The notes: generated by a model from the sequence alone, not told the origin. DNA of 12,339 bases from Paecilomyces variotii (GCA_004022145.1 RCNU01000056.1); one strand, 5' to 3'; positions 1 to 12,339 are shown, counted from the first letter of the stretch. Numbers and translations: made by a program.

Positions 1-1038
1 TCTATTAATATAATAAGATTAGATAAGCCCTAAAAAATAAAAAAAAGGTAAAGTAAAATTAAATAATTATATAAAAAAAAGCTATAGAAAGTAATTAAAT
101 AAGAATAAAAATTTTTTTTAATTAAGATAAACTAATTTAGCAATTATTAGCCTTTAAATATAATTAAGAAAGTAAGGATAGTTAAAGAAAAAATAAAAAA
201 TATATTTAAATAGAGTAAGAATAAAAAAATTATTAAAATAAAAGAGAAATAGAAGTTAAAAAGATTTAAAATTATAAATAAATTAAAAGAGACTATTAAT
301 ATAATAGGGATTATAAACTAGATATTAAATACTAGAGTTTAAATATTAATTTAAGACCTTATTAGTCTATTTCCTAATTTATATAAGGCCTTATTTATCT
401 TATAATTGCAGCAGGTAATAATAAAGACAATATTCTATAATATTAAAAGAGTATAGTTTAATACCTTTATATTAAATATAAAATATATAGTAAATAATAT
501 AGATTAATATACTTATATATCCTTATAACTTAAGCCTCTTAATAAAGATAAGATACTATATATAGCTATAATTCTGAAGTTACCGATTAAAATTAATAGA
601 TATAAAGAGGTATAAAATATTATAGTAGATAGTAGAGCCAAAATTAATATAATATATAGAGATATAACAAATTATTATAAATTTATTATAAGCTAGAAAT
701 TTAGAAATAATATAATATTAATAAACAATAGGCAGACCCCTTTTATAAGTCTTTATAAAGAGATATTTATATAGATAGGATCTTTTTATTATAAGGTCTC
801 TTTCTTTATAATAAATAATAAGATTAACTATAATTATATTCTAGGACAGCCTTTTAAGTATTAAATATATTTATAATATATTGCTCTATTAGATAAGATA
901 ATAAAAAGTATAATTTATTTTATAAACTAAAAAAATTAAGCTATTATTTAGGTATTTTTAATAGATAATCTAAGAAATAAGTTAAGGGAAAAAATATTAT
1001 ATAATCTATTATCCCAAGTATAAAAATTATTAAATTAA
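1..1038 (+). pseudogene. gag: Element A gag C-terminal region fused to aspartic protease (frame +1)
   Basis: 310-396 de-RIPs to IVDRILDTRVQMSIRDLIGLSPDLHKALF. 622-651 reads ATA GTA GAT AGT AGA GCC AAA ATT AAT ATA = (M/I)VDS(G)A(E)IN(V). 838-855 reads ILGQPF unchanged. Probable original stop TAA at 1036-1038. Confidence 0.8.
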
Positions 1039-1739
1039 AGCTAAAAAAAAATAATAAGTATTAGATTAGGAATAGAAAAGGCTTATAAAAATTATATTTA
1101 ATAAATAATATTAGCTTTAAAGCAAGCAAAGAAATTAAAAGTAAAGGGATAAGGATATTTAAACCTATTAAATTAAATAAAAGAGTTAGAAGATTATAGG
1201 GGTATAGACTATTTAGAAGATATAACCTTTTTATTATAAAAATAAAATATTTTATTAATATATAGTATAAGAAGAAATATAAAAAGGTTTATTTAATAAA
1301 TATATTAAATAGACCTATAGCAGCTCTAAGGGGGTTATTAAAATAAAAAAAAGTTATTAAGAAATATTATTATAAGAACTCCTAAAAAAGTATAAAAAAA
1401 ATATATAAAGGATTTGCCAAATATATCTAGCTAAAGATATTAAATATTAAGAAAAGAATAAGATTAATATTAGATTATTTAAAGAATCTTATTATAGGTA
1501 GCAATTTATAGCTAAAAAAAAAAAAACTATTAATAGAAATACTTTTTACCTAAAAAGTAGTCCTTATCTAGACCTTTAAAAAGATTAGATAAATATGCCT
1601 AGAAATTATACCTCCAATTATTATTTAGACTATAAATTATAAACTATAGCAAATAAAGAGCTTCCTAATATTAAAGGCACTTTATAATATAATATAAAAA
1701 ATAATAAAAAAGAGGATAAATATAGAGATCCTTAAATAT

Positions 1740-2330
1740 AGTTAAGAATCTTATTAAAATCTATAGTTCCTAATAAAAAAAAAAATAATAAGTATTAGCT
1801 AATTAATATAGTTATAGAAATTAATTAAATAATAATATAAGATATTAATTTACCTTTTTTAGCTAATAAGTTCTTAGAAAAGTTTAATAGAATATTAGTA
1901 TTAATGCTTATAAACTTATTCTTTAAGTATAATTAATTAAAGTTAGCTAAAGAATTACGGGACTTAATAGCTTTCTATATATTAAAGATTAGTTTAGTTT
2001 ATTAAGCTAAATTATTTTAAAGATAGATAAATATAATATAGGAGTTTATATAAGAAGTTATAAAAGTACTAGCAGATAATATTCCTAATATTTATAATAT
2101 ATTTCTAGATAATATACTAATATAAGGACCTAAAACTAATTATAAGGGGGAAAAGATACTGCTAAGAATTAGAAGGTTTATATTTAAATATATCTAGAAT
2201 ATTAATAAGATACTATATAGTCTTAAACTTGTAGGTTTAATAATTACTAGGGAGAAATTATAATTTATAATATTAAGAATTAAAATAATAGGCTATATAT
2301 ATAATATTAAAGGGAGATATCCTAAGTTAA
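1740..2330 (+). other. Element A reverse transcriptase core
   Basis: TTT CTA GAT AAT at 2102-2113 = FLD(D), followed by GGA CCT AAA ACT (GPKT). De-RIPed DLFSGYDQ, SRDLTAF and LPQGWTN lie upstream in the same frame. Confidence 0.92.
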
Positions 2331-2584
2331 TTAAAATAATTAAGATTTTAAAATAGCTATCTTATCAGAACTTATAGGAGGCGAGAAAATTTTTAGGGGT
2401 TATAGCCTATTACTAGATATAAATTAAAGAATATATTATTAAAACTAAGCTAATATACTTAATATTAAAAAAAAGATAAGATTTTTTTTAAGGGCCAGAA
2501 TAATAAAAAGTAATAAATATTTTAAAAGTAGCCCTAATAATAATACTAGCACTTAAACTAATTAACTATAAAGAGGAAAATATA

Positions 2585-2965
2585 ATTATTATTAATATTA
2601 ATGCCAATAGCAATAAATAAGGGGCTTAACTTACTTAAAAAAAAAAGGAGTCTAATAAAAGATACTTAGCTAGATATAAAAATAGAATATAGATATAGAT
2701 AAAAAAGCAATATAATAAAAGAAAGCTAAAGTATAGAATAATATTAAAGATATTTTATAAATTCTAAATATATCTATATAGTATATATTTTTAATTAAAG
2801 ATAGATATAAAAACTCTAATAATATAACTAAATAAAATAGCTATAAACCTCCTTAAGTTAATAATTATTTAGTAGATTACTTAGATTTAGCTATTTAACT
2901 TTAATATTATCTATATATTAAAGAAAAAAAACTTAGTTATAGATAGATTATTTTAAAAGCCAATA
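2585..2965 (+). other. Element A RNase H domain
   Basis: Frame +2, de-RIPed: TDASGDGWGA (2597-2626), ARYESGIW, KLECR, KFR.YLYG.HF.LETDAKTL..QLN, RWIAWIRLFDFDI.HV.GKKN.VADGLSRKP. Confidence 0.88.
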
Positions 2966-3310
2966 ATAAAATAAGATTTAGAAAAGATAGAAGATAATAA
3001 TATAAAGAAATTTTTAGACTTATAGTTTTATATAGTCTATTATATTAATATATAAAAGATAGAATTAAATAGTATCTCTTAGTTAATATTTATATTATAT
3101 TAATTAGAAAAGTCTTTATTAATTATAGAATAGTTATAAACTATAATAAAACTAGATAATATAAATAAAGAATAATACATTAAATTTAAGAAAGAGGCCC
3201 TAAAATATATAATATAAAATAGTATATTTTTTTAAAGAGTATAATAAAATCAGCCTTATTATATAGTTATTAATAATAAAAAAAAGTAAAAAAAAATTTT
3301 TACAGCTCTT

Positions 3311-4350
3311 TATAAAAAATATAAATATTATAAGTATAAAACAACCTATTAAAAGATAGCTAATTAATATTAGTAGAAAGGCCTATATAAATATATTACT
3401 AAATAAATAAAGATATATAATAAATGCTAGAAAGCAGATAAAAAATATATAAAAAAAGCTTTATAATTAATATTTATTTTATTAGGAAGATTAAAGCTAT
3501 ATTTAGATATTTATAAGATTATACCGCCTAGTAAAAAAAAGACTTATATTATTATATTTTAAGATAATTTTAGCTATAGGTTAAATATAGAGCCTTTAGT
3601 AGCCCTATTTTAAAAGCTATTATTAAATTTCTATAGGAAGACTAGATTTATTATTAGAGAGTAATAGAGACTTTTATTAATAATAAAAGATTAGAGAATA
3701 AAGCTATAGTTAATATATTAGTATAAAAGTATAAGATTAATTATATTAAAGTCTTATTATATAATCTATAAATAAATAGAGTAGTTAAAGTTATATATAA
3801 GTCTTTTATATATAATATTAGAAAATTTATAAAAAAAAATAGGGGTAAATTAAATAGATTATTTATTAGCAATAATTTAGGCAAATAAAAATATAGTTAA
3901 GATCTCTATAGGCTTAATATTATTTAGAGTAATTATAAGATATAATGCTATACTACTAATTAAACTAAAAATATTTACTTAAAAGACTTTAGCATAGGAT
4001 AAGATTAGGACTATAGAAGATCTTCTATTCCTTTATATATAATAGATAGAGCTCTAAGATTAAGATATAGAAGAGGCCCAACTTTGCATCTAATATATAA
4101 GAGAAGCTAGTAAGAAAGTTTTTAATAATAAGAAATAGCTCTATAAAGAACAATTAATAGAAGAATAGCTTATTCTGCTTTATAATATAAAGCTTAAGAT
4201 ATTTTATTCTATAAAACTGGTATACCGCTGGCTTAGATTATATAAAATTAAAAAAGTCCTTAAGAAAGGATTTTATAAGCTTAAGAAGTTAGATAATATA
4301 CTTTTTAAGGACTTAATTTATAAAAATTATTTAAAAGGCTATTATTTATA
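3311..4350 (+). other. Element A integrase (HHCC, DDE core, GPY/F module)
   Basis: H...GH.G.E.TY.KIA.RYWW.GLY...C..CQ at 3311-3430. D at 3506, DGG.EN at 3682, YNPQANG.VE ending 3789, W...LPA..WADR at ~3851-3890. 4214-4243 reads KL(A)YRWL(G)(P)Y, followed by Y.L.ELDG. Confidence 0.9.
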
Positions 4351-4607
4351 AGAGAATTAAAATAAAATACTAACTATAAGTAATAATATAGCATCTAAGT
4401 AAAAAAATTAGTAACTAAGTAATAATAATAATAATATAGACTAGATATTATCTAAATTAGAATATATAATTATAATCCTAATATCTTCTTTCTAAAAATA
4501 TTAATTTAAAAAAAAAAAAGTAAAAAGCTAATAATAAAGTAAATTTAATATTAAATAAGAATACTATAATAGGAAAAGAAGGAGAATAAACTTAAGATAA
4601 GGGCGTC

Positions 4608-4628
4608 TTTTTTTAGGAAGGAGAAGGA
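4608..4628 (+). promoter_or_regulatory. Polypurine-tract-like motif (T7 followed by AGGAAGGAGAAGGA) after element A pol
   Basis: 14-nt pure purine run 4615-4628 preceded by a T run. Position and shape resemble a Gypsy PPT, but no clear LTR start follows. Confidence 0.4.
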
Positions 4629-5018
4629 TTTAAAAATATCTAAAAATAATTAAGAAAGAAAAAAAAAAGAGATAACTAAAAAATATATAATATTAGCTTA
4701 AATATCTTAAAAAAGTCTATAAATAAAGCTAAAAATAAAAAATATTAGATAAAAAATATAAATAATAAATAAAGAATTCTTATCTTATTATAAAAACCTT
4801 ATTTTTTATATTATATAATATTATAGCAGAAGTAACTAGAGACTAAATTAAGCTAAACTTAACCCTATCTTATTTTTTAAGTATATCTTTTTGCTTAGAA
4901 ACTATTTCAAAGAATTGCTCTATAAAGATATATATTAAAAATAGAAAAAAATATATTAGAAATATAAAATATTGTCTGTTAGAATAAAGCTTTTTAACTT
5001 AAAATATATATATATACT

Positions 5019-6563
5019 ATAGTTAGCGAAATTTATAAGCTTATAAAAGAGATAATAAGTAAGGCTAATAATAAAGAAGAGAAGGTTTAATTTATAAATA
5101 ATATAGCAGCAATTATTTTAAATTTTTAAAGCAGGCATAATAAAGCAGTTAATAATTTTTATAATTTCTTAAACTAATAAGAGCTATTAAAAGAAGTAAG
5201 AAAGAAAAAAATATTAGCCATTAATAAGCTAAAAGAATTAAAAATATAAGCAGAAAAGAACTATAAATATATTAATAAAGATTATTATAAAGCTATAGAG
5301 AAATAGGACTAAAAAACTATAAACTAAGTCTTATTAATTATTAAAAAATTATATTAAATCTTAATAGCTATAGGAGGATTAGCTTTTAATATTAAAGACT
5401 AAAGAATAATAGCTATATATTTAATAAAAATATAAATTAATAAACTTTATAATATTAAGAAATAAGAAATATTAACTAAAAAGAGCCTTTAACTAACTAA
5501 TATTAGAAAGATAAAAAATATTTTAAGAAAAGCCCTTAGCAGAGAAGGATTAATTTTTTAAAAACCTATTAATAAAGAGCTATAAAAAGTTAAAATAAGA
5601 GTAGGGAAAAATAATCTTCTAAAAAAAATTATAGGAGAAAAAAAAAGATATTAAATAGAAGATTTAAATAAAAGCTTATTAATAAATCTAATATTAGATA
5701 AAGGAGAGGAAAATATAAAGGAGAAAGAAAAAGAGAAAAAAAAGACTAAGAGTTCTAAAAAGCTAAAAGGGAAAAAGAAGTTTAAAACTTAAGATAAAAA
5801 GAAATAGTTAGAAAAAAGATATAAATATAAGGTTAGTATATCTATATTAATAAAAAAGGCTATTATTAATCTAAAAGATAAAGAAGTATTAGAACTTTTA
5901 AGAAAAGAAAGGATTAAATCTATTATTATATACTAAGTTTATATTAAAAAAGTATAAAATATAATAAGACTAAGGAGTATAGAAGATAATATTTTTAGAA
6001 AAAGATTAAAAATACTTATAAATAATAATAATAACCTTAAATCCTAGAATACTAATATAGATTACTAGAAATAGTTTTAATAAGAATAGAGATTTAATAC
6101 TAATCTTAAGGATTATTACTGCCTAGATAAGAGGGAAATTAAAATATAATCCTAGCTAAGTAGATTAAATATAAGTATTAAGGAGGTTAGAGAAGTCTTA
6201 TAGTAGGTTAATTTTAAAAAGATTAACTTAATCTATAAGCCTTATATATAATTATTGGTTAATATAATTAATATAAGGGAGAATATATTTATAAAAGAAG
6301 CTAGAGAAGTATTAAAAATAATAAAAAATATAAAGCTAGTAGTAGTAAAGCAATAAAAAAAGAGACTATTTAAAATAATAACTTATCCTTATAAAAGTTT
6401 ATTTAAAGAAATTAAATAATCTATAAATAAAATTTTTAAAAATAAATAAATAATAGAATCTCCCAGTAGAGCCTTAAGAACTAATATAAAGCCCTCTTTT
6501 TCTATAATAAACCTAAAAGACCCTTTTATTAAGAAAGAAACTGGGCACTTAAAAGATATACAG
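5019..6563 (+). pseudogene. ORF3: RIP-degraded accessory reading frame of unknown function (at least 515 codons), truncated by element B insertion
   Basis: One frame (+3) reads protein-like without a shift from ATA (ex-ATG?) at 5019 to CAG at 6561-6563. About 34 stops by hand count, all TAA/TAG. Rich in GAA/GAG/GAT/GCN codons, with an acidic purine tract at 5697-5816. Confidence 0.75.
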
Positions 6564-6776
6564 TGTTATGCCCCTAGCTCCCCGCTAGGGCATAAGCTCG
6601 CAGGACTATAGCAAAGCCCCGAATCTAAACATAATACCGAGGTAATTAGTTAAACCCCGCTCTCCCCGCTTTCAGGATTTATATAAGATAAAGCTAGGAA
6701 GTGCTTAAGATTTAGAATATAAATAGGCTCTAAATTACTGTCTTACTAGAAGCCAATAATCTATTCTAATATAATA
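6564..6776 (+). repeat. Putative 5' LTR of element B (3' boundary uncertain: 6776 or 6872)
   Basis: Starts TG (TGTTATG). TATAATA at 6770-6776 is the RIP product expected of the inverted terminus CATAACA, but the same 7-mer recurs at 6866-6872. TATA-like TTTATATAAG at 6678-6687. The second LTR is not visible for confirmation. Confidence 0.6.
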
Positions 6777-6804
6777 TATACCCTACTATTTTTTTACTTA
6801 TATA

Positions 6805-6903
6805 AACCCTTTACTATTAGAACCTTTTAGTATAGACCCTTCTTTACACTAATTAGACCCTTTATTATAATAATTAACCCTTTATCTCGCCAGTAGACTC
6901 TTC
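6805..6903 (+). repeat. Six dispersed copies of RACCCTTY in the element B leader
   Basis: AACCCTTT 6805, AACCTTTT 6821, GACCCTTC 6835, GACCCTTT 6856, AACCCTTT 6876, GACTCTTC 6896. Confidence 0.65.
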
Positions 6904-7037
6904 TCTAAGCTAAGTGCGCAAAGCTACTATTTCTCTTGCTATAATTGCTAGCAGAATAATTTGTTAGTAATCTCTAAAAACTTTTATTCCTTATAGTTCG
7001 GATCGCTTAACTTAGCAATATAAGTGGCAGTATCAAT

Positions 7038-8084
7038 ATACCCTATAACTTAGGGGATAAGGGTCCTAGCGCTTAGCCTATAGTGCATACTCTAAAGGGT
7101 TTAGAGAATACTAAACCTAGCTTACAGCAATTAATTGCTGAAGCTAGCTTATAAACCCTAGGAGATACTCTAACAGGCCTAGAGATAAAGCAAGCTCAAA
7201 TAGAAGATAAACTGTTAATAAAAAGAGACTTCTTATAGCTCCTTGCCGCTAGTCATACTAGTAAACAGTTAAGGCTTAAGCTACCAGAACTGCAGAGGTA
7301 TAAAGCTATTACACTTAATACCTATTACTAATAATACCAATATATAAACAAATACTTAGCTTATAATGCTTTATTATTTAAAGATAAAGCTAAGAAAGTT
7401 ACCTATACTGCAGTATTGCTAGATAGAGAACTAGCTTAATCTTAGATCTACTAGCAAGAGGATCCTAACTTCTAGATATTAACCTAGGAAGAATTTAAGG
7501 GTTAATTACTAGATTTGCTTAATAATCTATATTACTAAGGATAAAATACAATAAACTGCTTTTATACCTTAATCTAATATTTTAATTAAACTACCTAAGC
7601 CTTCCTATACTATTTTAAGCAGGCTTAAGCAAAATTAAATTAGGGTAAAGGATTTAACAATAATAGAATTATCTAGTCTTATATCTTCTATGCAAAACTA
7701 TAACCTAAGGTTTAGATAGAATTGCTGAACTATTAAGACCTCCTAATAAACCTTAATTAATTAGTGTCTTTAATTACTAATTAGAAGACAAACCAAAAAA
7801 AGAATAAGACTATAAGTTAACCTACTCCGCTAAATACAAATAGATTAATATAAAATATATTAAAGGACTCCCCCCTAGGGCAAAAAAAAAAGGAGACTAA
7901 TAACTAACGCGCGGAGCTAACTAAACCCTAAAAAAAGAAAAAGTTCAAATTACTAGTAGAATAAGACTAGCTTAAAAAAGAAGGCTACTGCTTTAACTAT
8001 AATAAAATAGGCTATATATAAGGATTTAAATTATGCCTAAAAAAAAAAAACCCCTCTAAAAAAAAAAACCTAAAACTATTATAG
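7038..8084 (+). pseudogene. gag: Element B gag (frame +3), RIP-inactivated
   Basis: Probable start ATA (ex-ATG) at 7038. De-RIPed capsid-like text: LKLPEPQRY...FEDEAKKVAYAAVLLDGEPARSW...TWEEFKGWLLDLL. Zinc knuckle at 7989-8036, same frame; TAG at 8082-8084. Confidence 0.85.
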
Positions 8085-11000
8085 CCTTTTGCGATAAAGG
8101 GTCTAAGCTAAAAAAAGAATCTTTATATACCCTAGTGCAACTGCACCTTCTTAACAGCATATTTAAAGATAAGGCCTTTATTAATTCTAGATCAGCCCGC
8201 TGCTATATTAGCCTAGATATAGCTATATATTATAAAATTCTTTTAAACTTCTAGCAGTATATAAACTTTAAATCTATTAATAGGCATAAAATTTAAAAAT
8301 ATAAATTATTTAAAGCAAAGATCTATATTACTAACTCTAAAGAGATAATAGAGAAGGTAAAAATATACTTTTATATTATCCTAATACTTAAATTAAATAT
8401 TATCCTTAAGAAACTATAACTATATACTGTAAATCCCATTATAGATTAAGAGTTAATAATTTAGAGATATTATATTCTATATTAGCTATAGATAAAGATT
8501 AAAAGCACTTAATAATTCTCTAAGATAGTAAAAGAAGAGATAATTTATATACTCTATAGGGACTAAATTAACCCTATTACTCTTAAAAACCTACCTCTAA
8601 AATATAAGAAGTATGCTAAGGTCTTCTTAAAAAAGGGTGCAAGCATATTGCCTACTAAGATAGGTAAATATAAGATTAAACTCCTAGATAGTAAGGCGCC
8701 TCTATAAGATAAACTTTATAACCTCTCTACTAAAAAATTAGATATTCTATATAAATATCTTAAAAATATATAATAAAAGGGTTAGATATAATTATTAATT
8801 AGTCCCACAGGGGTATCTGTTCTATTTATTCTAAAGATAAATAGTATACTAAGGCTCTATATTAACTACAGAGCTTTAAACAGCATTACTATAAAAAATA
8901 AATATCCTTTACTTAGGGTAGATAAAATGCTTAACTAATTAATTGGCTCTAAGATCTTTACTAAGCTTAATCTTAGGGATACCTATTATTAGATTTAAAT
9001 CTGCTAAGGAGATAAATAGAAGATAGCCTTCTAAACCTATTATAGACACTTTAAATATTTAATAATATTATTTAGCCTATATAATACACCTGCTACTTTT
9101 TAAGCCTATATTAATTAGGTATTATAGGGGTTATTAGACATCTATTGCATTATATATTTAGATAATATCTTAATCTTCTCTAACTTTATTAAGGAGTATA
9201 AGAGATATATAGCGCAGGTTCTAGAAAGGCTATAAAAGCATAAATTATATATAAAATTATCTAAATATAAATTCTACAAGGAGAGAATTAAATTCCTTAG
9301 TTTTCTTATAGGAAAAGATAAAATAAAAATAAATCCTAGCAGAATAAAAACTATTAGAGACTGGCTAAAGCCTAAATCCTTTAAAGAAGTCTAAATCTTC
9401 CTAAAATTCACCAGCTTCTTCAAAAGATTTATCTATAACTACTCTATAAAAACAGCTCCCCTAACTAATCTACTAAAAGGAAGCATCCGGGAGAAAAAAA
9501 CTAAAATATTTATCTAGACTAAAAAAGCCATAAAGGTATTTAATAAGCTAAAATTAGCTTTTATAACTCCGCTAATACTAAGGCACTTTAATCTAAAAAA
9601 GCTAATAATACTAACAACTAATACCTCAAGATTTATTCTTACTACTATACTCCTTTAGGGAGATAATAATAAGACAGCTCTAAGCGCTAAGTTAGAAATA
9701 AATTTAAAAATTAAAACCTAAACAGACTAATAAACTACATCTAAGAACTAGCACCTTATAACATATTATGCCCAGAAGTTTACTAAAATAGAGGTATACT
9801 ATAAGGTTTACAACTAAGAACTCCTGGCTATTATTAATACTTTTAAATATTAGCATTACTACCTAGAAGGTAATAAACACCCTATATAAGTACAAAATAA
9901 TTACGCGAACTTATACTATTTCTTCACTATAAAGATATTAAATAATAAATAAGCTCGGTGGGCAAAACTATTAGTAGCATATAACTTTTAAATTAAATAT
10001 AAGCCAGGACAGCTTAATACTACAGATACCCTATTTAAAAGGGCAGATTTTAAACTATCTAAATCTAAATCCTAGATAGGATTACTTCTAACCCTCTAGA
10101 AAAAGCTTTAGTATAAAGCTTAAAATAAGCATATATAAAAAAGCAGTCTAGAGTATAAACCTATTAAAGCGGGTAGTACAGGTAATCTAAAATACCTAGT
10201 ATAAAAAATACTAGTTATTAAGGTAACTAGGAAAGAGTTTATTTAGGATATTATAACTCCTAGCCTACTCTTTATATTAAAGCAGCTTTAAGCAAAGGAC
10301 GCCTTTATCTTAGAGAAAACTAAAGAATTAAAAGTATATATTCCTAAAGACGGCTCAGAGATAGTATAAAAAATAGATAATAAAGGACTACTATAGAAGG
10401 GTAGTACTATATTTATACTAGATACACCCGCTATAAAGCAAGAGCTTCTTTAAATATATTATAATAACCTTTATACAGAGTATTAAGGTGTTAAGAAGAC
10501 TAAAGAGCTACTTTAAAGAAGATTTAACTAGCCTAAAATAGCACAGGACATATAAAAATATATATCTATATATAATATCTGCTAGAGAAACTAAACTCTA
10601 TAACATAGGCTATATAGAAAGCTAAAGTCTCTACTAATCCTAGCATAGCTATAGCAGAGTATCTTAATAAATTTTATAATAGGACTGCTGCTATTAGAGA
10701 AATAAGGAATTACCTATAATTTAATATTAGTAATTATAGACCGCTACTTAAAAATAGCGCTTTATATCCTTACTTATAAAACATTAAAGGCGGATAAAAT
10801 GGCTGACCTTATTATAGATTATATCTATAACTGCTTTAAACCTCTATAATCAATTATATTAGATAGGGGGGCGCTATTTACTAATAAATACTAGATAGAA
10901 CTTTACCGCCATATTTAAATTACTAAACTTCTAAATACTGCATTCTACCCCTAGACTAATAGCTAAATTAAAAGGCAAAATTAAATACTAGAGTATTACC

Positions 11001-11776
11001 TCTGGGTCTACTTAAACTATAAACAAGATAATTAGGTACTCTTATTAACTACAGCAGAGTTTATATACAATAATTTAATCTATACCTCTATAGGTATAAC
11101 TCCCTTCTACATTATCTATAGATTTAACCTTAAAAATTAGGATAAATATAACTCTAAAAAGCAAATAGATATACTAACAGTTAATAATTAATTAAAGAAA
11201 CTTACTAAAATACACGCCTAATTAGAAGAATCTCTCTAAAAGGCTATTGCTGCGCAATAAAAGCATTATAATAAGAAATATAAGCCTAGATCCTATATAG
11301 TAGGAGACCGAGTCTGCCTTTTAATAAAGAACTTAAAGATAGATTAATTAATTAAGAAACTAGACATAAAATACTTAAGACCTTATAAAGTCATAGAAAA
11401 AATTAGAACTTAAGCCTATTAGCTTAAGCTCCTAAAGAGCCTAGGCAGAATATACTTAATCTTCTATATCTCTCTATTAGAGCCCTACTATCAGAGACTA
11501 AGGGCTGAACCTAAATATTTAAACCTAATCTTAGTGGATAATAAACTAGAATAGAAGATTAAAGCCATTCTAGATAAATAAACAATACAGGGGAAGAAGT
11601 AATATTTAATTAAATAGAAGGGCTATCTAGATTATAAAAATTTATAGCAGCCTGAGAAGGATCTTAAGCATGCCTAAAATATACTAGCTAAATTTAAGGC
11701 GATAGTGCGAGCTATTAATAAAACCTCTCTAAGAAGAGCTCTAAAAAGCTTTAAAAAAAGGAGTTAATAAAACTAG
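8063..11776 (+). pseudogene. pol: Element B pol (PR-RT-RNase H-IN-chromodomain), frame +2 throughout
   Basis: PR KA(L)I(D)S(G)S at 8171. RT SP.G.PVLFVPK.DG.LRLCVDYRALN, KTAFRT.YGHFEY.VMPFGL.NAPATFQ, and YLD(D) at 9155-9166. RH TDAS at 9617, ELLAI, QARWA. IN HHCC 10460-10582 and D10670, D10862, E10970 (D-x35-E). GPY module ~11370. Original stop lies between 11765 and 11779. Confidence 0.95.
11549..11697 (+). other. Chromodomain at the C-terminus of element B integrase
   Basis: De-RIPed EWE(V)EAILDKR...GKKQYLIKWKGYPDYENSWQPEEDLEHAQ..LAEF. AILD, YLIK, KGY and QPE read unchanged. Confidence 0.9.
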
Positions 11777-11984
11777 TAAAATTTCCCTTTTTTCCTATTA
11801 GATTTACAGGTTTTACTTAATTATTTTATTATTAAATTTATATTACTCTTTCTCTATTTATCTATCTATAAAGGTTTAGGAGTTTTAATAAGGATATAAG
11901 AAGCTAGTCTATCTAAAAATAAATTTATTTTAACTGGGCTATCCTCAGCAGGAACTAAAAATATAGGCCTAAGATTAATCTCTC

Positions 11985-12338
11985 TTACTTATTTACTTTA
12001 CTATTATAAAACCCTATTAGCACAAATTTATTCTCCTCTTTATTAGAGAAAGAAGGAATATTATAAGCAATATATATAATTTCTTACATATACCGCAGAT
12101 TTAATACTATTAAATAGAGTAATCTAAATAACTCCTACTGGAGCTATATTATAAACTACTTATATAAAGATAGGATTAATAAGATAGTAGATATAAGCTT
12201 ATCTATATCTGCTTTAGTAGGCGCTTTGCGCAGGTATATCTCTATAGAGGATTTATACTTACTATAGGCCTCCTTAAAAGACCTATAATTACCTAAAAGG
12301 TAGGCCTTTTAGCTAAAGCTCTATAGACAAATAAGCTT
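11985..12338 (-). pseudogene. C-terminal part of a probable antisense accessory ORF in the 3' region of element B
   Basis: Minus-strand frame from 12338 gives 117 codons with 6 internal TAA/TAG stops and one 50-codon open run (KAYLLGNYRSFKEAYSKYKSSIEIYLRKAPTKADIDKL...). It ends in an acidic tail (de-RIPed DIPSFSDEEENEFVP.GF.DGEVDE) and TAA at 11987-11985. Confidence 0.6.
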
Positions 12339-12339
12339 A

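Follow-up and report, generated by a model that had tools for sequence, protein, structure and literature searches.

A RIP-destroyed 941-codon gene downstream of a Ty3/Gypsy pol region in Paecilomyces variotii, a probable third gene of the element

Introduction

In plants and animals, some LTR retrotransposons are known to carry extra genes. A locus in Paecilomyces variotii raises the question of whether a fungal Ty3/Gypsy element carries one: downstream of a pol region lies a long reading frame (ORF3), which an earlier note, made from the sequence alone, had described as a large third ORF on the sense strand at 5019-6563. We asked whether ORF3 is a real gene, whether it belongs to the Gypsy element upstream of it (element A), and what its product might do. 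The analysis covered one stretch of 12,339 nucleotides (the window; GCA_004022145.1, RCNU01000056.1), and all coordinates are counted from its first base. Among fungal Gypsy elements, chromoviruses and Ylt1-like elements have been distinguished as the two major lineages (PMC2864245; see also PMC3248453), and the P. variotii genome is described as containing an AT-rich RIP compartment (PMC6300479).

Results

The window consists of two AT-rich blocks, both with RIP-type mutation. Along bases 1-6563 the GC content is 0.14-0.21 and CpA/TpG are nearly gone; along bases 6564-12339, which hold a second element (element B), the GC content is 0.23-0.34. With the standard code, the window retains no ORF as long as 60 codons. 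Residual CA+TG amounted to 41/3450 (1.2%) in the pol region of element A, 6/568 (1.1%) in the spacer between pol and ORF3, 15/1545 (1.0%) in ORF3 and 203/5776 (3.5%) in element B, in agreement with the earlier description of ORF3 as being as heavily RIPed as pol. GC and AT skews were positive over pol, spacer and ORF3, whereas the GC skew of element B was mostly negative (-0.25 to +0.04). About one fifth of the words sampled from 3000-9000 were also found in several food-fermentation and grain metagenome runs, and a fraction of 0.11-0.14 in two metatranscriptome runs, a measure of word overlap alone that is silent on expression and habitat.

The following features were recognised in element A and in the spacer behind it:

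619..648, + strand: protease active-site region of element A, frame +1, IIVDSRAKIN, a RIP-mutated D-S/T-G-A motif (by eye)
2099-2122, + strand: RIP-mutated YxDD box IFLDNILI, just 5' of the RT thumb and RNase H match
2192..2953, + strand: RT thumb and RNase H, frame +2 (phmmer against PDB)
3338..4348, + strand: integrase, frame +2 (motifs by eye)
near 3416, + strand: integrase zinc-finger remnant (by eye)
4238-4348, + strand: last recognisable C-terminal SH3-like stretch (by eye)
4349..4940, + strand: spacer between pol and ORF3, with no open frame (stop counts by frame)
4572-4586 and 4617-4630, + strand: purine-rich, little-mutated tracts in the spacer (sequence)

Through a phmmer search of PDB with the X-masked translation, we matched the RT/RNase H region to Ty3 Gag-Pol (7q5b) and Ty3 RT/RNase H (4ol8) at E 7e-8, which upholds the reading of a long ORF on the sense strand that follows a Ty3/Gypsy pol. 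A weak second stretch, non-significant alone, aligned to the Ty3 integrase. Together with the motifs seen by eye, the Ty3 match gives the order protease, RT, RNase H, integrase, and element A is a Ty3/Gypsy element by this order. The best Pfam match was a marginal one to RT_RNaseH_2 (E 0.067), a measure of how far RIP has gone, and the protease was not detected by Pfam. Past 4348 there was neither a Pfam match to Chromo nor a visible chromodomain, although the heavier RIP could hide one; in element B, under milder RIP, the chromodomain is still visible. The low-stop frame of element A switches near nt 1000, from frame +1 in the protease to frame +2 in the RT (about 650-2100), which reflects either a frameshift programmed in the whole family or an indel peculiar to this copy.

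Turning to ORF3 itself, frame +3 of 5019-6563 contained 34 stops in 515 codons, where the remaining sense frames contained 81 and 79, and none of 1000 dinucleotide-preserving shuffles reached 34 or fewer (mean 66.8, sd 7.1). The frame also showed codon periodicity, with G at 0.17/0.09/0.11 and T at 0.22/0.34/0.33 over codon positions 1/2/3. Its distinctness in stop density held on the sense strand and failed on the antisense strand: over 4950-6600, frame -3 was equally stop-poor, with 33 stops against 37 in frame +3, so that stop density alone does not decide the strand in RIPed DNA. A sense frame without TAN and CAN stop-makers yields a low frame -3 count arithmetically, which makes the latter an artefact of frame correlation, and the strand of ORF3 was decided by homology to an intact protein.

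This protein was reached through an exhaustive search. The X-masked ORF3 translation gave no match in a word-index protein search; exhaustive HMMER against 1.84 billion representatives returned eight proteins at E <= 1e-3 (best 8e-60), which were short ORFs tiling the query. The cluster of the best match includes a protein of 941 aa, here called P0013, "hypothetical protein DTO195F2_9274 [Paecilomyces variotii]" (KAJ9246654.1, KAJ9396751.1), against which ORF3 was delimited as follows:

4941..6563, + strand: ORF3, the first 541 codons of a 941-codon ORF, RIP-mutated and 3'-truncated (codon test against P0013)

Bases 4941-6563 are collinear with P0013 residues 1-541 with zero indels. When the 541 codons were compared with P0013, 280 encoded the same residue, 261 could be reached from a codon for the P0013 residue through nothing but C>T or G>A changes, and 0 were of any other kind; shuffled versions of P0013 (n=500) left a mean of 113 and a maximum of 147 compatible codons, against 541/541 for the real protein. 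Each of the 37 in-frame stops corresponds to a Q (17), R (10) or W (10) residue of P0013. Because every codon is identical or RIP-reachable, the window copy is a purely RIP-mutated copy of the P0013 gene. Bases 4941-6563 are therefore what RIP has left of codons 1-541 in a real gene of 941 codons, the intact form of which is annotated in P. variotii, and the codon-reachability test ties a RIP-saturated ORF exactly to its intact source. The comparison also moves the start of the gene. An ATA at 4941, 26 codons 5' of 5019, lies opposite Met1 of P0013; the ATA at 5019, previously read as the initial "M", faces Thr27 and is no start Met. The de-RIPed N-terminus offered in the earlier note was nevertheless close to that of the intact protein.

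At its 3' side ORF3 is cut. P0013 and two related sequences, P0010 and P0006, run on beyond the residue of nt 6563 (...KD[VM][RQ]N[TA][RK]T...), whereas the window continues as TGTTATGCCCC... from 6564. Homology to all three stops exactly at 6563, and at 6564 there is a jump in GC (0.19 to 0.33) and in residual CpA/TpG. The sequence that follows contains these features:

6564..7034, + strand: start of the inserted sequence (TGTTATG...), presumed 5' LTR and leader of element B (homology end, composition)
7035..11764, + strand: gag (frame +3) and pol (frame +2) of element B (Pfam, motifs)
7989-8042, + strand: zinc knuckle of the element B gag, still visible after RIP
8174-8197, + strand: protease of element B (motif)

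Pfam matches to RVT_1 (4e-16), RT_RNaseH (8e-13), SH3_Tf2-1 (2e-10), Integrase_H2C2 (5e-5) and Chromo (0.08) identify element B, as judged by its domains, as a chromodomain Gypsy element that is fairly complete. Its lighter mutation load makes it the younger one. Element B inserted later into ORF3 and cuts it at 6563/6564, the very junction at which a second element had been suspected of interrupting the ORF, and about 400 ORF3 codons are absent from the window owing to this cut. The 3' LTR of element B was not found in the window, the 570 nt after its pol being unlike 6564-7034; on this side, element B either extends into a long 3' region that belongs to it or has been interrupted in turn. 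A repeat search, sensitive blastn and transition-tolerant alignment revealed no direct repeats or LTR pairs in the window, and a purine/pyrimidine-collapsed alignment for LTR pairs scored 22 against a shuffle mean of 21.5.

We then compared the copies and relatives of ORF3. For residues 411-515 we counted no fewer than four versions with different mutations (the window, P0006, P0007 and P0009), and near-intact copies are present as P0013 and P0010. Several differently mutated copies place the ORF3 gene in a repeat family, in accordance with the multicopy state that had been deduced from RIP. Two lineages are truly divergent, and their members are only short ORF pieces (237 and 86-91 aa). The longest piece, P0008 (237 aa), is 41% identical to P0013 with 66% positives over 223 aa (E 5e-39), and the alignment has three gaps, every one in-frame; the P0011/P0016 cluster shows 53% identity over 80 residues (E 2e-25). 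These alignments indicate that the ORF3 protein is conserved between element lineages. The best-kept stretches between P0013 and P0008 are IEDLGESLL[V/I]DLTL and KGKKRTKSPKKP. A word-index protein search at near length with P0013 gave no match, and with its C-terminal 382 aa the same kind of search among shorter proteins found only P0010 and P0017.

P0017, P0018 (XP_028482054.1) and P0019 represent a relic with about 80% identity to residues 708-793 of ORF3, which past ...ATLGT is joined to unrelated sequence. The P. variotii reference annotates the relic as a hypothetical protein of 159 aa, and P0019 is on 14 contigs. This related copy departs from P0013 after residue 793, which means either that a truncated copy has become fixed or that splicing at residue 793 underlies the P0013 gene model. 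As P0013 is a gene model and its relatives diverge after 793, its last 148 residues may be a spliced exon or a different 3' end.

Domain searches with the intact protein yielded no assignment. In Pfam at E up to 10, the 941 aa of P0013 matched only DUF6874 (E 0.17), consistent with the claim that no gag, pol or transposase is recognisable, and nothing significant was found with ORF3 fragments. Sequence and profile searches of PDB gave a coronavirus endoribonuclease as the best match (E 0.18), which we took as chance. Against the ESM Atlas, whole P0013 had no usable match, and residues 620-941 scored at most 0.83, under the usable level. There was no Pfam match to retrotransposon gag, and neither a CX2CX4HX4C motif nor a conserved protease motif was visible in P0013. 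The earlier note had mentioned a C-terminal PhyH-like 2OG-Fe(II) oxygenase domain in related elements; this candidate was rejected, as the 941-aa protein lacked any such match in Pfam at E up to 10, in the sequence and profile searches of PDB and in the Atlas.

No membrane segment was found in P0013, the top 19-residue Kyte-Doolittle mean being 1.27 with no window above 1.6, and the N-terminus, MEENALEIRNVVRQDK, is charged. The absence of a signal peptide and transmembrane segment thus stands for the intact protein, and the lack of a hydrophobic segment combined with the charged N-terminus means that the ORF3 protein is not env-like. Self-BLAST of P0013 showed no internal repeat, with a weak hint of resemblance between residues 314-345 and 414-445 (E 0.21). 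Structure prediction, which had been proposed as a check, gave no searchable fold: the mean AlphaFold2 pLDDT was 36.3 for whole P0013 and 45.5 for its N-terminal 239 aa. These low-confidence models place helices in residues 1-240 and 300-480, and contain a long disordered stretch rich in Ser/Thr/Pro/Glu.

Three adjoining features stand out in the region aligned with P0008:

5655..5696, + strand: motif IEDLGESLL[V/I]DLTL, P0013 residues 239-252, shared with the 41%-identical P0008
5697-5729, + strand: acidic run, P0013 residues 253-263, directly after IEDLGESLL[V/I]DLTL
5730..5786, + strand: basic cluster KGKKRTKSPKKPKGEKKLK, P0013 residues 264-282, NLS-like with SPKK (P0008 comparison)

In both proteins a hydrophobic core is followed by acidic residues, as LLVDLTL and EESMEEEE in P0013 and as LLIDLTL and DEDDSEDQS in P0008. 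SUMO-interaction motifs consist of a hydrophobic core, [VIL][VIL]DLT in type, with acidic or serine residues after it. We take the hydrophobic-D-L-T core of ORF3 with its acidic run to resemble the SUMO-interaction motifs of PIAS and RNF4 proteins. Within the basic cluster, KGKKRTKSPKKP is identical in P0008 at 12/12 positions and its flanks diverge; we take TKSPKKPK in this cluster to be similar to SPKK minor-groove motifs as well as to CDK sites and NLSs. This arrangement replaces the Glu/Asp tract of about 40 residues that had been reported here: in P0013, a run of some 12 acidic residues gives way to some 30 that are truly basic (KGKKRTKSPKKPKGEKKLK...), and the false tract arose because de-RIPing had reverted real lysines to glutamates.

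Discussion

ORF3 is probably an internal third gene of element A, in the order gag-pol-ORF3, rather than a neighbour of the element. We infer this linkage from the common strand, the gap of 592 nt between the last recognisable integrase motif and ORF3, the uniform RIP saturation, the positive base skews and the lack of any indication of another carrier. Equal RIP saturation counts as weak evidence of linkage, since all old repeats converge to the same floor. The window contains no LTRs of element A, both ends of which lie outside it.

The two purine-rich spacer tracts bear on whether an LTR might start 5' of ORF3. Both GGAAAAGAAGGAGAA and AGGAAGGAGAAGGA retain G residues despite RIP saturation, are polypurine-tract-like and sit 220-280 nt past the last integrase motif, the usual place of a polypurine tract and LTR, and the space before ORF3 allows such a tract followed by a short 3' LTR (under about 350 bp). 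If that LTR lay within 4349-4940, ORF3 would fall outside element A, as another repeated unit or a duplicated gene alongside it. Such a placement would suit the P. variotii annotation, in which ORF3 is a stand-alone hypothetical protein, and the scans of metagenome contigs with P0013 and P0008 and of viral contigs with P0013, which gave no match and hence no second ORF3 locus. We nonetheless consider it unlikely. The LTR and ORF3's own upstream region would have to fit in about 310 nt, pol, spacer and ORF3 share one strand and have a uniform RIP saturation and base skew unlike those of element B, and no match of ORF3 to a transposase, gag or host-gene family hints at a different carrier.

A gene inside the element need not serve it, and ORF3 could be a passenger, captured or arisen de novo, with no role in the life cycle. 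Its protein has no detectable domain or confident fold, the family is very small (8 matches among 1.84 billion representatives), and the divergent relatives are only short ORF fragments (237 and 86-91 aa). Against this, the 941-codon ORF is open in two P. variotii records, and P0008, at 41% identity and 66% positives, keeps its short motifs perfectly and has no gaps other than in-frame ones, which speaks for purifying selection acting on the protein across lineages of the element. A passenger status therefore seems improbable to us, somewhat more so than a position outside the element. As for chance, or an antisense gene in frame -3 like the brtn gene on record for Boty-like Gypsy elements (cited in PMC8365987), the 33 stops of that frame against 37 in frame +3 lend it a foothold that is lost with the fit of the sense frame to P0013 at 541/541 codons under RIP-only change and with a frame -3 translation that is not protein-like (63% Leu/Ile/Phe/Ser), and we regard it as refuted.

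Overall, we lean towards ORF3 as a gene in the Gypsy element, for which a nuclear accessory role is proposed. Our best guess for its product, a weakly supported one, is a nuclear accessory factor, suggested by the SUMO-interaction-like motif and the basic SPKK/NLS cluster. As a specific mechanism we tentatively propose, with clear reservations, a soluble, largely helical and disordered protein that would act in the nucleus as a chromatin-directed adaptor. The NLS/SPKK cluster and the SUMO-interaction-like motif, both kept in the 41%-identical lineage, could form the adaptor to chromatin, bringing the pre-integration complex of the element, or the ORF3 protein itself, to it. Such a tether might stand in for the chromodomain apparently missing from the element A lineage or might interfere with host silencing. 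The fullest version of the proposal, and a doubtful one, is that a chromodomain-less Eurotiales Gypsy lineage encodes a 941-aa nuclear adaptor whose SUMO-interaction motif and SPKK/NLS cluster would anchor the integration complex to SUMO-marked silent chromatin or shield the element from it. If this were true, the adaptor would define a new class among retrotransposon accessory proteins, with no kinship to env, gag or any known domain.

If ORF3 is a gene of the element, it is a candidate for target choice or for coping with genome defence in chromodomain-less fungal Gypsy elements. It is a long sense-strand ORF with relatives detected only among a handful of element copies, yet its protein is conserved between lineages. 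P. variotii is reported to be transformable and crossable and to have active RIP (PMC6300479), and with some strains keeping an open 941-codon copy it would be a practical host for tests.

An accessory ORF of an LTR retrotransposon is a known kind of gene, and ORF3 likely belongs to this kind, here as an orphan 941-aa protein in a Eurotiales fungus. Athila elements of plants carry an env-like extra ORF (PMC2864245) and bdelloid rotifer elements carry captured ORF3s (PMC5408684). As far as the excerpted sources describe them, these share with our case a long added sense ORF downstream of pol in a Ty3/Gypsy-type element; ORF3 differs from them in having no signal peptide or membrane segment and no enzymatic or captured host domain, and its host is a filamentous ascomycete. 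In the literature searched for extra genes of fungal Gypsy elements, only the antisense brtn of Boty was found, and no sense third ORF. In Botrytis cinerea, brtn is an additional gene carried by Boty-like Gypsy elements (Zhao et al. 2011, cited in PMC8365987); it resembles ORF3 in being an extra gene of a fungal Ty3/Gypsy element, a likeness by description only, and differs in orientation, being antisense by the title of the cited paper whereas ORF3 is sense.

Ylt1-like elements and element A are alike as fungal Ty3/Gypsy elements, element A being without a visible chromodomain, and the excerpts of PMC2864245 and PMC3248453 mention no third ORF for the Ylt1-like lineage. Orchid Ty3/Gypsy elements are reported to carry an AlkB-type 2OG-Fe(II) m6A demethylase domain (PMC9289625). 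From the excerpt of that source, they are like element A in being Gypsy elements with a fixed extra protein module, and unlike it in being plant elements with AlkB, whereas the 941-aa P0013 has no 2OG-Fe(II), PhyH or AlkB signal in Pfam. These orchid elements may be the source of the oxygenase domain mentioned in the earlier note. Finally, a 7.1-kb Tf2-type element, Tn123, has been described in P. variotii (PMC6300479); by size and type it is closer to element B than to element A, and element B may belong to the Tn123 family.
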